64,000 bases of DNA from Methanomassiliicoccales archaeon (GTDB lineage Archaea > Thermoplasmatota > Thermoplasmata > Methanomassiliicoccales > JACIVX01). The stretch covers positions 1,522,359-1,586,358 of the forward strand of contig JACIVX010000001.1 in assembly GCA_014361295.1 (NCBI GenBank), written 5' to 3'. The translations under genes and the position numbers were made by a program. How positions within the stretch are numbered: position 1 is the first letter of the stretch; each line of letters starts with the position of its first letter. This document shows positions 3,182 to 51,478 of this stretch, piece by piece. The notes beneath the pieces are model-generated. The model saw only the letters and a program-made list of their open reading frames with translations. It was not told the origin of the DNA and made no database searches.

Positions 3182-3604
3182 ATGACGGGGGTGTTCGATA
3201 TGGGCATTCACGTTATCGCCGAATTGCTCGGCGTTGACCCTCGAAAGATCTCTCGCGTCGAGATTATCCGCCCGATCTTGAATAGAGTTATTTCTAAATC
3301 TGGATTGAACTGCATTTCCTCTCATTATCATCAATTCGAAGAATATGGCGTCTCTGCTGTATATCTATTGAGTGAGTCCCACCTGAGCGTACATACATGG
3401 CCCGAATATGGTTACATCGCTCTCGACATTTTTACCTGCGGTCCTGATGAGTCAGCCCTGAAAGCTTTTCGTTTGCTCATTGAAGAATTCAGACCCAAGA
3501 TCGTCAAGAAAAAGATCATCAGGAGGGTTCCCTATGCAAAAGGTGGATGCACAGATCTTGAAGATTCTTTCGGAATCGAAGAAGTCCATTTGGGAGCTGC
3601 TTGA
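3182..3604 (+). CDS. speH: S-adenosylmethionine decarboxylase proenzyme (pyruvoyl type)
   Basis: Self-cleavage motif LLSESHLSVHTWPEYGY and the size are typical of archaeal/bacterial class 1 AdoMetDC. The true start may be Met7 at 3200. Confidence 0.85.
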   Translation: MTGVFDMGIHVIAELLGVDPRKISRVEIIRPILNRVISKSGLNCISSHYHQFEEYGVSAVYLLSESHLSVHTWPEYGYIALDIFTCGPDESALKAFRLLIEEFRPKIVKKKIIRRVPYAKGGCTDLEDSFGIEEVHLGAA

Positions 3605-4592
3605 TGCCTTCGATTTCAATTTAAGGGAATTTATTTGCGGACTGAGGCGACTTCACGATGCTGGGTTAATTTCTGCGGATGAGGAAGGATTCGCTCTCAC
3701 TGAAAGAGGGAAGAATGTTCTCGATCCTCATATTACAGCATTCAAACTCGTGAAATGCAGGGAATGTCTCGGCAAGAAATTTCTATTGACTGATAGATTA
3801 AAAGAAATTCTCGAGGAATTCAAGGAGATCACGAAAACCAGACCTCAGCCAACTTTTGACTATTTCCAGGGATACATGGATGAGATCGATGTTATATCAA
3901 GGGTAGCTCTCATGCACTACTACAACGATCTCCACAATAAGGATTTCGTTCTTATCGGTGATGATGACCTTCTAAGCATTGCCCTCTCTCTGACGAATCT
4001 GCCTTCGAGAATCTGTGTTTTGGATATCGACGAACGGATCGGTAGTTATCTTACTCAATTGAACAAGGAGCGCGGATTTGACATCGAGTTCCGTAGGTAT
4101 AATGTCGCGGAGCCTTTACCGGATGATCTCATTCGCAAATTCGACGTCTTCTCTTCTGAGCCTCTCGAAACGATCAGCGGATTGAAGGCATTCATTGGGA
4201 GGGGAGTAAGTTGTCTTGGAGCCGGTGGTGTCGGTTATTTCGGTCTGACGGTCGCCGAGGCATCCCATGAAAAATGGCTTAAAATTGAAAAAATGCTTGC
4301 GAATGGAAATTGTGTGATTACCGATCTAATAAGGGGTTTTTCGAGATATCCGATGAGATACGATGATGTGAACTATGAAACATTTATCGCAAACCTAAAA
4401 TTCCCCGCGAAGGAAAACCCAGGAATCCACTGGTATAAGTCAGCTCTCATCCGATTTGAAATTTTAGGAGAACCAAAGCACATCATCGATCCGAAAAGAA
4501 AGCTTAAGCTCGAATTCATTGACCGAGCGGAGGACATCACTCACATCAGCGTCAATCAATGTATTGAGAATAGGGATGAAAATGGGAAGTGA
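3534..4592 (+). CDS. bpsA: N4-bis(aminopropyl)spermidine synthase-like (DUF43/BpsA family) with N-terminal wHTH
   Basis: Track ORF 3480..4592; start placed at Met19. Has FVLIGDDDLLSIAL, VLDIDERI and a methyltransferase-fold core following a wHTH-like N-terminus, as in the branched-chain polyamine synthase family. Lies directly after speH. Confidence 0.7.
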   Translation: MQKVDAQILKILSESKKSIWELLDAFDFNLREFICGLRRLHDAGLISADEEGFALTERGKNVLDPHITAFKLVKCRECLGKKFLLTDRLKEILEEFKEITKTRPQPTFDYFQGYMDEIDVISRVALMHYYNDLHNKDFVLIGDDDLLSIALSLTNLPSRICVLDIDERIGSYLTQLNKERGFDIEFRRYNVAEPLPDDLIRKFDVFSSEPLETISGLKAFIGRGVSCLGAGGVGYFGLTVAEASHEKWLKIEKMLANGNCVITDLIRGFSRYPMRYDDVNYETFIANLKFPAKENPGIHWYKSALIRFEILGEPKHIIDPKRKLKLEFIDRAEDITHISVNQCIENRDENGK

Positions 4593-4618
4593 CCATCGAA
4601 ACTGCAAGTTTCGATGGA

Positions 4619-5034
4619 ATGACCAGAAGAAAGGCGACACAGCAAGATCTTTAGATCATCATCGAGTTCCCGAAAAAAACTGTCAGCAAAGGAAAGCGCA
4701 GCGGATTCTATGGTCATGCCTGCGAGTAGATTCCAGAACCGCGATTGACTGATGAGAGACATTCTCAGTGAAAATTCAATCGTTTTCGTAGCTGAGCGAG
4801 GAAGCTCTCTCGTCAGATACGTTCTAGGATGGAACGACAGACCTTGCAATTGTAGGGGAAAAGGGGATATGATTGCGATTGCTTCGTGCTGGGAGATTAC
4901 TGACACACGGGTATAATGTATGGTTATGCAACGCGATTCTTGAGTGGTTTAGAGAAAAAGGCGTCTCGTGCGTCGAATCGGACGTCCATTACGAGAATCG
5001 TGAATCGATCTGCCCGTTCGAAGGTTTGGTCTAA
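4619..5034 (+). pseudogene. GNAT-family N-acetyltransferase pseudogene (in-frame stops plus two frameshifts)
   Basis: GNAT-like pieces lie in three successive frames. First MTRRKATQQDL-TAG-IIIEFPKK.., then ..SIVFVAERGSSLVRYVLGW.. (4752..4916), then ..AILEWFREKGVSCVESDVHYENRESICPFEGLV-stop (ends 5034). The total span, about 138 codons, fits a GNAT. Confidence 0.55.
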
Positions 5035-5220
5035 AGAAGTATGTAAAACGTTTCAGATTGCCGTGAGTATTAAGTCGGGGGTTATAGAGAAAATATGTTG
5101 ATTTTGTCTCAGGGATTTCATTTCTATTGTTGAAGTTGCTGGGGTGCTTATTTTCGTACGATTCTCTTTTGGCTCGCATGAGCCAACAACGGACCCTATC
5201 GAGCTTCAAGGCGAGTACTT

Positions 5221-5248
5221 AATCGAGTAAAGAGAATCGAGTAAAGAG
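5221..5248. repeat. perfect 14-bp tandem direct repeat x2 (aatcgagtaaagag), partial third copy follows
   Basis: Read directly: aatcgagtaaagag|aatcgagtaaagag|aaagaatcga. Sits in non-coding DNA between the GNAT remnant and the GC-rich cassette. Confidence 0.9.
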
Positions 5249-5344
5249 AAAGAATCGACTTCTCCGTTGTCACATCCTTCTCTAACGGATTCTTTTGTCA
5301 ACGCAGAATACCCGTCGCCTACGTGCTGTGATCCAGCAACCCTT

Positions 5345-6235
5345 TCAAGTGGTTGCCGTCATGTCCCCATCATTTGAATCGTAGTCGGATAGCTCTGTTT
5401 GACCCTTACGCTCGCCTACCCATTCCTTTAGTAGTCTTACTATTTTTGATCTTGTATTTTTGTTTTCTATGTTAACGCCTTCCTTGAACCTGAAGACAAT
5501 ATTAGGCGAGCTGTCATCATACTCCATATAATCCTTCATTTTTCCCTCTACCAACTGGACCAATTGCTGTTCTACGGACTTAACAAGTTTGCCTTTGCTG
5601 GTCTCAGAAACATTTTCAGCAATCCTCTCCAGGCCTGAGGTGACTATCTGATCGGCGGTCCTGCCTCTGCATCCCGGTTCGGCCAGCTTTAGGACCAAGT
5701 TCACGAGCCCCCTCCTCAATTCGTACGATTTCGATGCCATTTCCGGAATCAACTGGATTTGAATATCGGGCGATCGGCTTATATCCGTTCCATTGAATTT
5801 CCTAAGGTACTCCGCCAGTTCTGTGTCGCTGAGCTTCTCCGTGTTCTTCGAGTCGAAGCGGTCTCTCACGAATATCTGGCAGTAACCGCCGTCGTCGACG
5901 TCATTTTCGAGCCGACTGCATATCACGTTTGGCTTCCCCGCGATGGTGTCGCCGAGCCACTGCTGGAACAGCCTCGGGTTCATATCCCGATAGGAATCCA
6001 GCTGGCATTTCTTGGGCTTGTCGTTGAGGGTGACCTCTATTATCGCCCATTTTGAATCGCTCGAGCAGACGATATCCGGCACGCCGCCCGCGCCGGTTGG
6101 ATCCGCCACAGGCTCAATGACGCCTATCTTGTATCCAGCGCTCTTAAAGGGTCCCTTGAGTCCGATGGTCTTGAGCTCGTAGAAAAGGGCGACGGTGTTC
6201 CTCCAAAGACGGATTCTGTCGTCGACTTCACGCAA
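5345..6235 (-). CDS. hypothetical protein (downstream gene of GC-rich cassette)
   Basis: 296-aa ORF overlapping the upstream ORF by 8 nt. GC-rich coding sequence. No family recognised. VPDIVCSSDSKWAIIEVT only weakly resembles a PD-(D/E)xK core (the Lys is missing). Confidence 0.6.
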   Translation of the reverse strand: MREVDDRIRLWRNTVALFYELKTIGLKGPFKSAGYKIGVIEPVADPTGAGGVPDIVCSSDSKWAIIEVTLNDKPKKCQLDSYRDMNPRLFQQWLGDTIAGKPNVICSRLENDVDDGGYCQIFVRDRFDSKNTEKLSDTELAEYLRKFNGTDISRSPDIQIQLIPEMASKSYELRRGLVNLVLKLAEPGCRGRTADQIVTSGLERIAENVSETSKGKLVKSVEQQLVQLVEGKMKDYMEYDDSSPNIVFRFKEGVNIENKNTRSKIVRLLKEWVGERKGQTELSDYDSNDGDMTATT

Positions 6236-7277
6236 ATACTTCTACCCCGTCGATCGAGATCGATGTCTTTCCCGCGCTCTCCTCGCCGTGGACAGTCGCG
6301 ATCCTCGGCGCCGCGTTCACGCATCCGTCCATCGGGATCACCAAGTGCGCGTAACTGGGGGCAACACCCATCAGGACGCGGTCCCACGTGTGGAGGTCGA
6401 CGCCCGAGTACCTCCTGTAGTCGTCTTCGCGCTCGAGTTCGACCAGCCACAGCTTCAGCTCGCCGACCCCCTTCGATGTTACATTGGAGAACCCGTCTAC
6501 GTCGATGCTTCTGGTAAATTCGATCTCGAACGGGGCGTAGACGCTGTCCCTTATCTTTGTGGCTTCCCGGAGTTCGTCCTCGTAGACGAGGGCCATGTAT
6601 ATGACGCACTGCAGGGCCTCCTCTACTTCCGTCGCCCTGTTGATGGTGACCTTTCCGTTTGAATACCACTCCGACGATATCACTACGTCGTTGCCGCTGA
6701 TCTTCTGCCACCTCATGCTGTTGATGGCATACTTTTCCCTGAGTGTTCGGAGGACCCCCTCTATCTCGGGGTCTATTCCCTGGGCCCCGTACCACGCTTT
6801 CATGCTGAGATAGCTCCTGTGCTCCTCTGGTCTCAGGCCGTCCTCGAACTTGATGCCGACTCCTCTTTCCATCCAGTTTTCCTTATCGGACCAGTACTTC
6901 ATGAGACTCCGGGTCAGCCAGCAGTAGTCGATGCCGTGCGTTTCTCCGACCATCTTTTCGATCGAATAGTCAGAGATCCTGGCCTCCGCGAGACTGAATA
7001 TCGTGCAGACGCGCTCTCCTGTTCTGTTTAGGACGAAGCTCTCGTCGGTCCTACGGTCGTCCGCCGCCGAGTTGATGTACCATCCAGAAACATCCAGCGG
7101 CCGCCAAGAACCGGACGGACAGGGTATATGCGGAACGAGCTTCGGGTTGACCTCGATGAGGTAGGCTTTAAGCTGTGCCCAGTGGTACTTGCCGTGTTCC
7201 TCGAGGGCCTCCTCGTTCTTATTGAACAGGAACTGCACGCACCTCTTGAAATCGCCGAGAGACTTTATCCCGTCCAT
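6228..7277 (-). CDS. hypothetical protein (upstream gene of GC-rich cassette)
   Basis: Track ORF 6228..7307 starts at TTG. The only ATG is 10 codons in (7277) and lies about 32 nt downstream of a TTATATA box, so the ATG start is preferred. Trp-rich, with no recognised family. Confidence 0.6.
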   Translation of the reverse strand: MDGIKSLGDFKRCVQFLFNKNEEALEEHGKYHWAQLKAYLIEVNPKLVPHIPCPSGSWRPLDVSGWYINSAADDRRTDESFVLNRTGERVCTIFSLAEARISDYSIEKMVGETHGIDYCWLTRSLMKYWSDKENWMERGVGIKFEDGLRPEEHRSYLSMKAWYGAQGIDPEIEGVLRTLREKYAINSMRWQKISGNDVVISSEWYSNGKVTINRATEVEEALQCVIYMALVYEDELREATKIRDSVYAPFEIEFTRSIDVDGFSNVTSKGVGELKLWLVELEREDDYRRYSGVDLHTWDRVLMGVAPSYAHLVIPMDGCVNAAPRIATVHGEESAGKTSISIDGVEVFA

Positions 7278-7308
7278 CGCCTTTTTCCCCCTGCTTGCAT
7301 AATCCAAC

Positions 7309-7315
7309 TATATAA
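7309..7315 (-). promoter_or_regulatory. candidate TATA box for the GC-rich cassette
   Basis: Minus-strand TTATATA about 32 nt upstream of ATG 7277. This spacing fits an archaeal short-leader or leaderless mRNA. Confidence 0.35.
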
Positions 7316-7454
7316 CTATCTTTGCATCCTCTGCACAGAGAATATGAGATTATTCCGATATATATGGTTAAGCTTTTGAAGTGCAGACAAGAGAAAACCC
7401 GCTCCGTCACCACTCCTTTGGTATCTCCTCTATTTCCGTAATCTTCTCAGAGAT

Positions 7455-7466
7455 GGGGGGGGGGGG
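7455..7466. repeat. G12 homopolymer tract
   Basis: Read directly: agat gggggggggggg agaa. It is immediately followed by a 9-bp-arm inverted repeat (7469-7477 / 7494-7502, AAAAGTTCT..AGAACTTTT) and T-rich sequence. Confidence 0.95.
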
Positions 7467-7606
7467 AGAAAAGTTCTCTAGTTGTGTGTGAACAGAACTT
7501 TTGTTATGACTTTCAATTCCTTTTATTGGTTTTTGGCATCTAACGCAGCGAATTGTTTTAGGCGAAGATTATTTGTCTTAGGTTTAGTAGTCCTTTGTAG
7601 TCCTTC

Positions 7607-7825
7607 TTAAGCATTTTCAATTTCTTTTGGTGTTAGGAGGACGAGTTTTCCTGCGAAGGGGTATGTTTGCGCAGCTTCTATTATTTCGTCATGGTATTCT
7701 TGTTCTGCGACTACAACCATTTTGAGGGACCATTGATGCACCAAGTTAAGCCTGTATATTGGGTCGGGAATGCTTCCATGCACTTGGACTTCGAATGGCA
7801 CATATGTTAGTCCGAAGATTTTCAT
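7607..7825 (-). CDS. hypothetical small protein
   Basis: 72-aa ORF in AT-rich DNA between the EVE-like gene and the G12 tract. No motif recognised; coding status uncertain. Confidence 0.3.
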   Translation of the reverse strand: MKIFGLTYVPFEVQVHGSIPDPIYRLNLVHQWSLKMVVVAEQEYHDEIIEAAQTYPFAGKLVLLTPKEIENA

Positions 7826-7996
7826 GCGAGATCGAGTGATTTGCCTTTTGCTTTGAAGGGTTTATCTGTTGGCCTAAGGTCATTTACCGTTGGCTTTTTT
7901 AGTGATTCGTACCCAAAGATTTGACCGATGATATGTAAAGATTCGACAATTGCGTTGTGTGGTGATGCTTCTTCTATTGACGTTTCCCTTTCAGGT

Positions 7997-8494
7997 TTAG
8001 TTTTTCTTGTGCCATTCTGTCTCTACGACTTTCACTTTGTCTATTCCAATAAGGTATTCTGGATTGGTAAGGTTGTCCTTGATTATTTGGTAATCGTGTT
8101 CTGTGAGCTTTCTGCAAGTTTTTCCTTGTAGGTAATTATACCATTTCTCGCTGTCTGGAAAAAGGTCAAATTTCACGGTTTTCGAAAGGACCAGCTTCTT
8201 AAAGTTGAGATAGTAACCTGATGGAGGCATTTCTGATGGCTTTATAGAGTAAACCATGATTTCGTTCCAAAAGGGATCCCTTTCAAGATGAGTTATATCT
8301 GAAGTGATCTCAAAAATTCCCACTACAACATTGTTTTTACTGGCATAATAAATGATTTTATCCCCCTTCCTAATTTCGGCGAATTGCTTAAACCGAGGTT
8401 CTCGCAGACCATGACTTTTAACTCTGCAACCTATCAAATCGCTATGTTGTGCATACGCTTTCAAATCATGAACTACAAACCAGTGATTCATCAT
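7997..8494 (-). CDS. EVE/PUA-like domain protein
   Basis: Track ORF 7997..8599; Met36 (8494) is preferred because the upstream 105 nt are A/T-rich and promoter-like. NHWFVVHDL...IRKGDKIIYYASKNNVVVGIFEITSDITHLERDPFW follows the EVE pattern (W-hydrophobic start, GD..hYhS, hhGhhEh, DP..W). Confidence 0.5.
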   Translation of the reverse strand: MMNHWFVVHDLKAYAQHSDLIGCRVKSHGLREPRFKQFAEIRKGDKIIYYASKNNVVVGIFEITSDITHLERDPFWNEIMVYSIKPSEMPPSGYYLNFKKLVLSKTVKFDLFPDSEKWYNYLQGKTCRKLTEHDYQIIKDNLTNPEYLIGIDKVKVVETEWHKKN

Positions 8495-8690
8495 TATTTC
8501 CCTACAAGGACTTGAGATTATGTAGTTTTTTCTTTTCTTAATTTTATTTTTAATCTTAAGTTCTGTGTTCCATATTTTGTTAAGATGAACCTCGTGCACT
8601 GCTGTTCCAGTAGATGGACATGAAAAGAGCGAAACGGGCTCGAAAAGATAAATTAATCCAGTTAGAAAAATGATATTCCAGACATGAAAG

Positions 8691-8783
8691 TGGGCTCACC
8701 CGGATTCGAACCGGGGAACTTCGCCGTTCTGACCTCCAAATGAGGATGTCAAGGCGACGTCATAACCACTAGACCATGAGCCC
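8691..8783 (-). tRNA. tRNA-Val(GAC) with a 20-nt intron at 37/38
   Basis: Revcomp folds as a cloverleaf: acceptor GGGCTCA/TGAGCCC, D arm GTCT-AGTGGTTA-TGAC, anticodon stem TCGCC/GGCGA, loop TTGACA[intron]C, T arm CCCGG-TTCGAAT-CCGGG, discriminator A. The intron forms TGAC/GTCA and CTC/GAG helices with 3-nt bulges (BHB-like). No encoded CCA. Confidence 0.9.
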
Positions 8784-11659: not shown

Positions 11660-12111
11660 TCAATCTGGAGTTCCGCCGTCTTCAGGGAATACGTCCAATC
11701 GGCGGGAATGACGCCCTGTCTTTTGTAGTATTTCACGAGTCTCCTGATTTTCGATTCAATCAGTTGGAGGCCTCTTTTCGCCGCAACATCTTTCTTGTTT
11801 TCGAGAAGGTGCATATCGACATTGATCGCCTTTCTCATTAAAGCGGCAAGATCTTCTGGAATTTCAGGTTTCAGCCCGTTCTCTCTCAATATCTGCGTGA
11901 TGCTCTTTCCTGTGGCGAGTTTGACGCTCGGTACTGCGTAATTGTCTCGAAGAACGAGACCGATTCTCGCACTCGTCAACCCATCCCTTCCAAGCTTTAC
12001 GACGAGCTTTTCAATTTCCTCTTTATTCAACGGAACCCACTCGGGATTCTTAGTGATGAGCGGTCTCTTTGAGCCTGACCTGCCTCTTCTCCTGGCATGA
12101 ATTCGAGCCAT
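11656..12111 (-). CDS. rps15: 30S ribosomal protein S15 (uS15, S13e type)
   Basis: [17 protein letters not shown]...[16 protein letters not shown] is a typical archaeal S15. Start moved to Met6 of track ORF 11656..12126. Confidence 0.9.
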
Positions 12112-12759: not shown

Positions 12760-13439
12760 TTTCCCTTCACCGCGATCATTGCGTGATCCTTTTCGATTGG
12801 ATCGAGGGCGATTACATCAGCAACCTCGTATCCCTCGCTTTCAAGCTTCCTGATGGACTCGCTGTAGATCTCTTTTGGATTCCTTGTGACATCTTCAGAC
12901 CTCGCTTTGATCGCGATCATCCCCGCTTTTGCATTGAATGCTCGCATATTTTTCACAAAAATTAAGGTCTGCTTCCGCTGCGCGATGTCTTGATAGACAA
13001 TATCTACCCTATCGATCATAGTCACGTAGTTTTCTGGTTTACTTGCATCTGCGAGCAGGGGAATCATATTCTTCCGACTTGAGCAGACGAAGAGCAAATC
13101 GCGGAAGGAGCGGGGAGATATTTCCACACAGTACACTTTTCCCTCAGTAACAATATCTGACACGTGTGAAGCAGTCGTCCCGCTCGCCGCCCCCAAATAG
13201 AGCACTCTCGTTGTCCTTTCAAAAGGAAAAAAGGTTCCGCCAAGCTTGAGGTAGGCAGCCAATTTGCTTCTACTGGCCACCCACTCCCTGTATTCCTCGT
13301 TATTAATGCGGATCAATCGTTCGCCGTAAACCCTGATTCCCGGCGTCAAATTCCTTGTATAAATTCTTTGAGAATCGCTGAAAACACCGGCAAATTTTGT
13401 TTCACGGATCGCGATGCCGGATTCCATGATTTTCGTCAC
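12756..13439 (-). CDS. flpA: fibrillarin-like rRNA/tRNA 2'-O-methyltransferase
   Basis: EEYREWVASRSKLAAYL, VLYLGAASGTTASHVSDIV and VDIVYQDIAQ are typical fibrillarin SAM-MTase motifs. 227 aa. Confidence 0.9.
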   Translation of the reverse strand: MTKIMESGIAIRETKFAGVFSDSQRIYTRNLTPGIRVYGERLIRINNEEYREWVASRSKLAAYLKLGGTFFPFERTTRVLYLGAASGTTASHVSDIVTEGKVYCVEISPRSFRDLLFVCSSRKNMIPLLADASKPENYVTMIDRVDIVYQDIAQRKQTLIFVKNMRAFNAKAGMIAIKARSEDVTRNPKEIYSESIRKLESEGYEVADVIALDPIEKDHAMIAVKGK

Positions 13440-23922: not shown

Positions 23923-24007
23923 GCAGGGATAACCAAGCCTGGCCAACGGTGCGAGATTCAGGGTCTCGTCGCGTAGGCGTTCGGGGGTTCAAATCCTCCT
24001 CCCTGCA
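23923..24007 (+). tRNA. tRNA-Leu(CAG), long variable arm
   Basis: Acceptor GCAGGGA/TCCCTGC, anticodon stem CGAGA/TCTCG with loop TTCAGGG, 14-nt variable arm (CGC-GTAG-GCG), T arm GGGGG-TTCAAAT-CCTCC, discriminator A. Confidence 0.9.
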
Positions 24008-24233
24008 CTGTCTTTATTCTCATTTAATCTGCTAGAATGATTCTTTGATCGCGCGATTTTGGTGTTTTTTGGCACTAAAGGAACTCAGGTGGTAGGCCAC
24101 GCATCTGGTTATAGAATCGGCCGTGAACGCCTTTTAAAGTCCAATGGTGATTTCAGATTCCTTTCGATGTTCCACCCCAAAAATACGCAAATTGTATAAG
24201 GGGAGGTATCAATGATCGATTATTGGTGATATC

Positions 24234-51385: not shown

Positions 51386-51478
51386 TGGGCTCACCCGGAT
51401 TCGAACCGGGGAACTTCGCCGCTCTCAGTCATCAGATGACATGTGAGGGCGACGTCATAACCACTAGACCATGAGCCC
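51386..51478 (-). tRNA. tRNA-Val(CAC) with a 20-nt intron at 37/38
   Basis: Exons are identical to tRNA-Val(GAC) at 8691..8783 except positions 32 and 34 (loop CTCACA[intron]C). The intron TGTCATCTGATGACTGAGAG forms CTCA/TGAG and GTCA/TGAC helices (BHB-like). Confidence 0.9.

Follow-up and report, generated by a model that had tools for sequence, protein, structure and literature searches.

Archaeal antiviral immunity is poorly charted. Hotspots in which defence islands gather between core genes have been described for the E. coli pan-genome (PMC10121019), and for fusions of an EVE domain to a PD-(D/E)XK nuclease a role as type IV restriction enzymes has been put forward (PMC7641849). The tRNA-adjacent hotspot of the defence type is a well-known kind of locus, and the island considered here is in itself an ordinary one. 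It lies in a 64-kb stretch of DNA (the window, to which all coordinates refer unless a contig is named) from a Methanomassiliicoccales metagenome-assembled genome (MAG), where it occupies positions 4593-8690 between the speH-bpsA operon and an intron-containing tRNA-Val(GAC) gene. What is added here is the occurrence in Methanomassiliicoccales, the comparison of five variants and an uncharacterised two-gene unit, the MJECL33 operon. In our view the patch is probably what now fills a hypervariable accessory slot: a small genomic island of the defence type and not an intact integrative element. The first-pass annotation had singled out these 4 kb or so, and every feature it named was found in its place, including, in this order, a palindrome with a tandem repeat, a GC-rich cassette and a G12 tract with a hairpin. 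The genes of the patch and its borders are as follows, L001 being a contig of the same species.

3182-3604, plus strand: speH, recognised through its L001 orthologue (PF02675, AdoMet_dc)
3534-4592, plus strand: bpsA (BpsA_C, 7.5e-69)
4589-5075 (approximate), plus strand: GNAT acetyltransferase pseudogene, located by tblastn with the intact 162-amino-acid GNAT of L001
5345-6235, minus strand: partner gene of the MJECL33 operon, 296 amino acids, intact, with a predicted PD-(D/E)xK-like N-terminus and a C-terminal winged helix
6228-7277, minus strand: MJECL33-family gene, 349 amino acids, intact, with its ATG at 7277 (the mechanical open reading frame (ORF) reaches 7307)
7558-8494, minus strand: EVE311 pseudogene, with an N-terminal EVE domain and a C-terminal nuclease-like domain, defined by the 311-amino-acid L001 orthologue
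8691-8783, minus strand: tRNA-Val(GAC) (Rfam RF00005, 58.3 bits; anticodon loop UUGAC; intron of ~22 nt)

Seven Methanomassiliicoccales contigs (L001, L003, L009, L010, L011, L078 and L080), anchored on BpsA and Kae1, were compared with the window, and five different cargos are found in these eight sequences, which come from two sister species and have flanks that are 85-99% identical. The slot is limited on one side by the host speH-bpsA-GNAT operon and on the other by tRNA-Val(GAC)/kae1; the left flank, speH-bpsA, is syntenic in L001, L003, L078 and L080 at 85-99% nucleotide identity, and the tRNA gene, whose 3' end (8691) faces the island, the patch stopping at 8690, is 100% identical in L001 and is kept in L003, L009, L011 and L078. 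The conspecific L001 (JGI 3300038743; 95-99% nucleotide identity) has the same gene order with GNAT and EVE311 both intact and an extra 1.4 kb. L078 and L080 are of the same species as L001, yet differ from it in cargo. In L078, with a left flank 99.4% identical to that of L001, the block of partner gene, MJECL33 gene and EVE311 is replaced by ~6.1 kb in which PADLOC recognises a type II methylase (MTase_II, 2.6e-118), a PDC-S11/NucS-like nuclease (2.4e-42) and, more weakly, a PDC-M19A-like gene (3e-8), and homology to the window returns at 8513, 178 bp from the tRNA. L080 (left flank 99.3% identical to L001) has a third cargo that includes a FAD-dependent oxidoreductase and a membrane protein. 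In the sister species (85-88% nucleotide identity) L003 and L011 carry 9 kb with DUF996, a split helicase and TauE, and L009 and L010 carry an Hma system made up of a SNF2 helicase, HmaB (5.7e-66) and HmaC (1.4e-92), these two variants being 99% identical rightward of a sharp breakpoint (L009 8045). L001 and L010 derive from one metagenome.

With flanks conserved and cargo that differs among strains and sister species, the reading as a variable island is directly supported by the alignment of these contigs. The earlier proposal had been "a degraded, mosaic integrated element or variable island"; the variable island stands, given the four other cargos in the slot (those of L078, L080, L003/L011 and L009/L010), and for integration at the tRNA there is no demonstration, part of the evidence contradicting it. 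The comparison with relatives that had been called for gave a gene order shared with L001 and with none of the other strains or the sister species. In NCBI the locus runs from MBC7108633 to MBC7108640 on a 1.78-Mb contig of a Methanomassiliicoccales MAG, with exact protein matches for BpsA (MBC7108633), the MJECL33-family protein (MBC7108636) and Kae1 (MBC7108640); a scan of genome contigs for 8-mers of the BpsA peptide found no relative, the species apparently being absent from the GTDB representatives.

The composition of the patch was measured in 500-nt windows against the rest of the 64 kb (mean GC 0.473, standard deviation 0.033), and the sharp swing from GC-rich to AT-rich DNA noticed by eye holds quantitatively: 6001-6500 ranks first in the 64 kb with a GC of 0.590 (z=+3.6), and 8001-8500 has one of 0.374 (z=-3.0), the second lowest. 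The GC excess of the cassette sits at synonymous, third codon positions, where GC content (GC3) is 0.77 in the MJECL33 gene and 0.71 in codons 1-200 of the partner, as against 0.40 in the EVE fragment and 0.43-0.57 in host genes. As the compositions at 0.77 and 0.40 are foreign in opposite directions, the patch has at least two origins. The junctions of the patch fall at ~5237-5266 and 7468-7485. Intact genes cover ~47% of it, and intact genes and pseudogenes together ~82%, so that the lower coding density reported earlier stands when pseudogenes are left out and disappears when they are counted. Two of its four genes, GNAT and EVE311, are decayed.

The older layer of the cargo is the AT-rich EVE311 next to the tRNA, since inactivated by frameshifts, and the newer layer is the intact, GC3-rich MJECL33 operon, a recent acquisition. 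In the sister species the EVE311 remnant proximal to the tRNA is the shared and oldest part, with the variable DNA distal to it. Cargo would be turned over mainly by homologous recombination within the conserved flanks or close to them, integrative elements acting as occasional deliverers of cargo with no resident integrase at work. The raised divergence at the left edge and a switch in GC3 at ~5650 are both consistent with tracts of recombination whose ends lie within the conserved flanks or close by. That switch lies within the partner gene, which is intact and whose GC3 falls from ~0.8 to ~0.35 over its last third (5345-5650 vs 5650-7277); a compositional junction at this place points to a breakpoint of recombination or to an allele of mosaic origin.

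The left edge of the patch bears on the host operon itself. In L001 the GNAT gene is intact, encoding 162 amino acids with an Acetyltransf_1 match of 8.7e-22, and its start overlaps the bpsA stop; the same overlap of a GTG start with that stop (GTGA) is seen in the window, and GNAT therefore belongs, from its arrangement, to the host speH-bpsA operon as a third gene coupled in translation, and is not cargo. The first-pass annotation was right that this gene is decayed, tblastn matches in the window being spread over three frames and broken by frameshifts and in-frame stops, and was mistaken in counting it as part of the island. The window copy has 78% nucleotide identity to L001, as against 95.1% for bpsA and 97-100% for most other genes (AF1314 96.7%), and seven gaps, neighbouring genes having none; within-gene indels between window and L001 are confined to GNAT (seven) and EVE311 (three), the 11 other genes (~9 kb) being free of them. 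The divergent tract may extend beyond the island to the host operon, as far as bpsA (3534-4592), most of the housekeeping genes nearby being 98-100% identical to L001. The sister-species contigs retain just GNAT residues 1-33 and EVE311 residues 241-311. The locus is one at which a neighbouring host gene of the polyamine operon has been eroded by the turnover of an island.

At the other edge, the EVE-like gene and 72-amino-acid ORF that had been described in the AT-rich DNA are both present, but not as separate genes: the EVE ORF (7997-8599) and the smaller ORF (7607-7825) are pieces of one frameshifted EVE311. The intact 311-amino-acid orthologue of L001 aligns end to end with the window copy, from which it differs by three 1-nt indels at ~8005, 7824 and 7610, and EVE311 is, judged from its reading frame, dead in this genome. 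The NCBI annotation at this position is a 200-amino-acid EVE protein (P0291) and nothing else, and is here corrected to a truncated two-domain gene of 311 codons. Pfam finds EVE in the window ORF at 1.9e-5, and a profile of the family (56 proteins, mostly of ~310 amino acids) matches the PDB entries PH1033 (7e-11) and MJECL36 (2p5d; 1e-10) over the N-terminal EVE part. Residues K218, D221, E235 and Q237 are invariant across 30 EVE311 sequences, and the label of nuclease comes from this motif, the C-terminal domain having no profile or PDB match. PADLOC v2.0.0 returned no family at E<=0.1 for the window fragments, the intact EVE311 or three homologues. Homologues adjoin a type IIG-like restriction-modification gene with DUF4145 and are also found near TGT/DUF6884, and EVE311 may once have been a modification-dependent, type IV-like restriction enzyme. 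MJECL36, the second-best PDB match of the EVE domain, comes, like MJECL33, from the extrachromosomal element of M. jannaschii, and genes of the EVE and MJECL33 types may be neighbours on that element too. A general functional link between EVE genes and the MJECL33 pair, which the plasmid name common to MJECL33 and MJECL36 had suggested, was considered and rejected, an EVE gene being near the pair in the window and L001 alone and ~8.5 kb off in two Methanoculleus loci.

The MJECL33 operon is the part of the cargo that stands out, with its strict pairing, its 61 loci and its confident structural models, and no known defence model describes it. The family (Pfam PF25924) takes its name from an ORF on the extrachromosomal element of Methanocaldococcus jannaschii, and the precomputed matches to PF25924 include a protein 99% identical to that of the window (P0001) and all 120 listed homologues. 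In all 198 homologues were collected, mostly 45-50% identical; 49 columns, many of them polar, are invariant in 52 sequences, and the nearest homologues outside the species are 68-75% identical and stand in other contexts. The partner gene lies directly downstream, overlapping by 8 nt, and its family has 118 cluster representatives in a library of 1.84 billion representatives. AlphaFold2 models of the two proteins have a pLDDT of 92.2 (MJECL33) and 93.2 (partner). In 53 partner sequences D47 is present in all, position 60 is E or D in all, position 62 is T or S in all, and K68 is found in 51. Weak Foldseek matches of the partner are to Hjc (E 0.1, probability 0.54), McrC, MGME1, AF1548 and the R2 restriction-like endonuclease (RLE), the last also reached by its profile in the PDB at E 0.8, and those of its C-terminus are to winged helices of the SmtB/Cdt1 type. 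MJECL33 is most consistently matched in fold, and weakly so (TM ~0.19), by RnlA, by viral RNaseLS-like proteins and by TBP, in TBP-like alpha+beta domains. Neither protein has a significant Foldseek match in PDB or BFVD, one BFVD hit reaching E 4e-4 but at a TM of 0.16; NCBIfam and PDB sequence searches gave nothing meaningful for either, and Pfam has no match for the partner. No MJECL33 was found among the viruses of IMG/VR or INPHARED, though there is a distant PHROG match (phrog_22469, 2.6e-9), and a literature search on MJECL33 or PF25924 found no paper.

Among GTDB species representatives there are 61 MJECL33 loci, patchily distributed, and in 51 of the 53 with enough sequence the partner is directly downstream. 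The hosts are Methanoculleus, Methanocella, Methanothrix, Methanoregula, Methanoperedens, ANME archaea and Methanomassiliicoccales, together with one Halobacteria MAG and a few MAGs binned as bacteria, and cultured carriers include Methanoculleus and Methanocella. In 44 of 45 other loci the pair has a lower GC content than the DNA that flanks it, and in the window and L001 alone a higher one; being offset nearly everywhere, the pair therefore behaves as foreign DNA. Tyrosine integrases occur near the pair in L002, L004/L035 and L005. On L035, which is on one contig with L004 and belongs to another Methanomassiliicoccales genome, the integrase (4218-5305) abuts the 3' end of tRNA-Ile(GAT) and is followed by a run of small ORFs on the same strand, with the MJECL33 operon beyond them; from this layout the operon seems to sit on a genuine integrated element, and blastn-short found no att repeat within 21 kb. 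Neighbours of MJECL33 include type IIG restriction-modification genes (7-10 loci) and also Cas3, BrxC, pAgo-SIR2 and ApeA. A distant bacterial homologue of 397 amino acids (hhalign probability 96%) is found on plasmid pB218 of Metabacillus sp. B2-18 (L013, 52005-54217), followed by an overlapping gene of 340 amino acids with a canonical PE...ECK motif; next to this pair lie a PemK/MazF toxin gene and the reverse transcriptase of a group II intron. The isolate Methanoculleus formosensis Afa-1 has two MJECL33 copies (L045 and L060), the latter with no partner in the 10 kb downstream, and the partner genes of L064, L065 and L068 are fragmented.

Judged by its open frames and its composition, the operon of the window is intact and horizontally acquired, and it is a reasonable candidate for a new defence system. 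We would go further only tentatively, in suggesting that MJECL33 and its partner could form an undescribed, self-contained and mobile two-gene system of nuclease-based immunity or addiction, mainly archaeal. MJECL33, with TBP-like domains and many invariant polar residues, may act as sensor or regulator, and the partner would be a DNA-directed effector under its control.

It would seem unlikely that the patch is what remains of a single integrative element, a provirus or plasmid placed at the 3' end of tRNA-Val by a tyrosine integrase that has since been lost together with its att sites, even though the island abuts that end, the same operon rides the element of L035/L004 whose integrase abuts tRNA-Ile, the integrases of L002 and L005 lie within a few kb of it, and the divergence of L078 extends to within 178 bp of the tRNA. 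Neither an integrase nor a copy of the tRNA 3' end had been noticed on first inspection, and both absences were borne out: Pfam has no integrase match on the ORFs of the patch, a hidden Markov model (HMM) built from three neighbouring tyrosine integrases had no match in any of the six frames of the window, L001, L003, L009 and L011, and blastn-short with the tRNA and 40 nt of flank found the gene itself and a paralogue at 51386-51478, with nothing in the patch, L001 or L003. A similar search for a partial repeat of the tRNA-Val 3' end in the window, L001-L004 and L035 was negative. Furthermore a single element would not account for the two opposite foreign compositions, and serial integration at the tRNA would put the newest DNA beside it, where the sister species show the oldest. 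Less probable still is that the patch is ancestral and vertically inherited, its relatives differing by lineage-specific deletions and its composition reflecting amino-acid content or expression level. Both species do share remnants of GNAT and EVE311, and the MJECL33 pair keeps conserved housekeeping neighbours in several methanogen lineages (AlaRS in 8-9 Methanoperedens-type loci), but the other cargos (Hma, methylase with PDC-S11, TauE, FAD enzyme) are not homologous to that of the window and so are gains, the GC excess is at third codon positions, and the nearest MJECL33 outside the species is as distant, and as differently placed, as described above.

It is just as improbable that the split EVE gene, the broken GNAT and the G12 tract are artefacts of MAG assembly or sequencing and that the genes are truly intact. 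Two of the three EVE311 indels do fall in homopolymers (A5 for A4, G for GG), and the G tract varies in length between assemblies (G12 vs G10); on the other hand the 11 other genes align with L001 with zero gaps, GNAT combines 22% nucleotide divergence with several in-frame stops in a manner unlike indel noise, and the junctions and gene order recur in the independent metagenome assembly L001. Sequencing error was rejected as the source of the frameshifts, the indels being limited to the two decayed genes.

Several results nevertheless weigh against the reading of the patch as a small defence-type island in a hypervariable slot. No empty site was found among the compared contigs, and insertion and replacement are therefore inseparable; nor was any integrase, att site, terminal inverted repeat or target-site duplication found that would mark the arrival of cargo, the sequence examined being free of all four. 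The three EVE311 indels, two of which are in short homopolymers, may in principle be errors of assembly. PADLOC v2.0.0 assigns neither MJECL33 nor its partner to any family at E<=0.1, and the assignment of the partner and EVE311 as nucleases is by motifs, the partner matching in Foldseek at E of about 0.1 and TM of about 0.2-0.4 and having T/S at position 62, where the canonical motif has K. The tallies of defence genes near MJECL33 are raw counts, and in many genomes the pair has housekeeping neighbours (AlaRS, ABCE1, CPSase, pelota). Recognised or architecture-predicted defence genes are found in three of the five cargo sets; L080 has no recognised defence gene, nor does L003/L011 with its TauE and DUF996, and the slot is therefore not exclusively one of defence.

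Besides its genes the patch has a number of short sequence features, most of them at or near the junctions.

5169-5186, no strand: hairpin TTGGCTC-GCAT-GAGCCAA with a 7-bp stem, 3' of the GNAT pseudogene, read from the sequence
5221-5248, no strand: perfect 14-nt tandem duplication (AATCGAGTAAAGAG x2), from a repeat search (family D5)
5266-5300, plus strand: 35-nt repeat GTTGTCACATCCTTCTCTAACGGATTCTTTTGTCA, just beyond the 3' end of the MJECL33 operon, at the L001 indel junction
7455-7466 and 7469-7502, no strand: G12 tract and hairpin with a 9-bp stem in the spacer between EVE311 and the MJECL33 gene, read from the sequence

The first hairpin is mostly kept in L001, with two substitutions in its stem arms, and the duplicated 14-nt unit is there in one copy. 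The 35-nt repeat, of which the window has one copy and none would be expected by chance, has three copies in L001, one at the operon-side edge of the extra 1.4 kb and two inside it. These L001 copies (11965-12013, 12783-12831 and 12972-13020) belong to a repeat of 35-49 nt (GTTGTCACATCC..AACGGATT..TTGTCA) that brackets two modules, 189 and 818 bp start to start, in the 1.4 kb absent from the window. The window copy resembles a hybrid of the two outer L001 copies, which suggests a deletion between repeats. Between two of the copies L001 also has iteron-like direct repeats (GGTGTGTCGG / GGTGTTTCGG; 12843-12972) with a period of ~11 nt. The 35-nt repeat was considered as a viral att or CRISPR-like sequence and rejected, as it has no match on viral contigs or at other loci and its spacing is irregular. 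Repeats flanking the cassette were sought, and gave short, chance-like matches.

The G tract sits where the conserved 3' flank of EVE311 meets variable cargo, homology to L003, L009 and L011 starting at ~7468-7485; L001 has G10 and a 4-nt deletion at this point (~9820), and the homopolymer is polymorphic in length. In the sister species a non-coding, tRNA-proximal array of (A/T)AGTGCAAGAG-type repeats with two 65-nt copies is found in L009 (8540-8880) and also in L003 and L011, and a sequence akin to its motif, AGTGCAGACAAGAG, occurs at ~7382-7395 of the window.

The tRNA genes of the window are not all called alike by the two programs used. ARAGORN makes no call for tRNA-Val(GAC) and miscalls its orthologues in L003 (20114-20208) and in L009 and L011 (9380-9474) as tRNA-Gly(TCC); the Rfam tRNA model detects the window gene and the orthologues in L003, L009 and L011. 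A second intron-containing tRNA gene at 51386-51478 on the minus strand, 88% identical to tRNA-Val(GAC) and left untyped by ARAGORN, which gives it the anticodon 'ca', is probably another tRNA-Val isoacceptor. ARAGORN also calls a tRNA-Leu(CAG) at 23923-24008 on the plus strand that is not on the Rfam gathering-threshold list.

Compared with described proteins, EVE311 is like the putative EVE-PD-(D/E)XK restriction enzymes (PMC7641849; Lutz et al. 2019, PMC6765204) in its N-terminal EVE domain, in the C-terminal residues K218, D221 and E235-x-Q237, and in the restriction-modification contexts of its homologues; it is unlike them in that its motif ends in Q and not K, its C-terminal domain matches no profile, and the copy in the window is frameshifted. 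MJECL33 is like the RnlA of RnlA-RnlB and the LsoA of LsoA-LsoB in its TBP-like domains, its length of ~350 amino acids, its two-gene operon and its occurrence on mobile elements. It lacks, however, the HEPN domain and the Rx4-6H motif, and the match in fold has a TM of ~0.19; the C-terminal domain of its model is alpha/beta (strands 276-313), with an invariant H296-x3-R300 lying in strands. The second gene of its operon, unlike RnlB and LsoB, encodes not a small antitoxin but a protein of ~290 amino acids that is nuclease-like with a winged helix-turn-helix. That partner follows Hjc and other PD-(D/E)xK nucleases in the order of strands and helices and in a P-D ... (E/D)-x-(T/S) ... K pattern, and departs from them in a conserved K six residues past position 62, in its C-terminal winged helix and in scores that stay below significance.

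The island as a whole shares with tRNA-targeting archaeal integrative elements, such as that of L035/L004 at tRNA-Ile, a site at the 3' end of a tRNA gene, and the L035 element carries the same MJECL33 operon; unlike them the patch has no integrase, att duplication or block of small element-type ORFs, is mosaic in composition and has its oldest piece beside the tRNA. The hotspots of E. coli differ in that here there is no integrase or mobile-element backbone in the variants examined, the host is an uncultured Methanomassiliicoccales archaeon, the island is only 4.1 kb, half of its genes are pseudogenes and the adjacent host GNAT is eroded. The likeness to defence-island hotspots between core genes (PMC10121019) lies in conserved flanks, strain-specific cargo, atypical composition and adjacency to a tRNA gene, and in the nature of the cargo itself (Hma, a type II methylase with PDC-S11, an EVE-nuclease gene), and makes this locus a concrete hotspot in which defence cargo is swapped between strains and a place to seek new archaeal systems by association.

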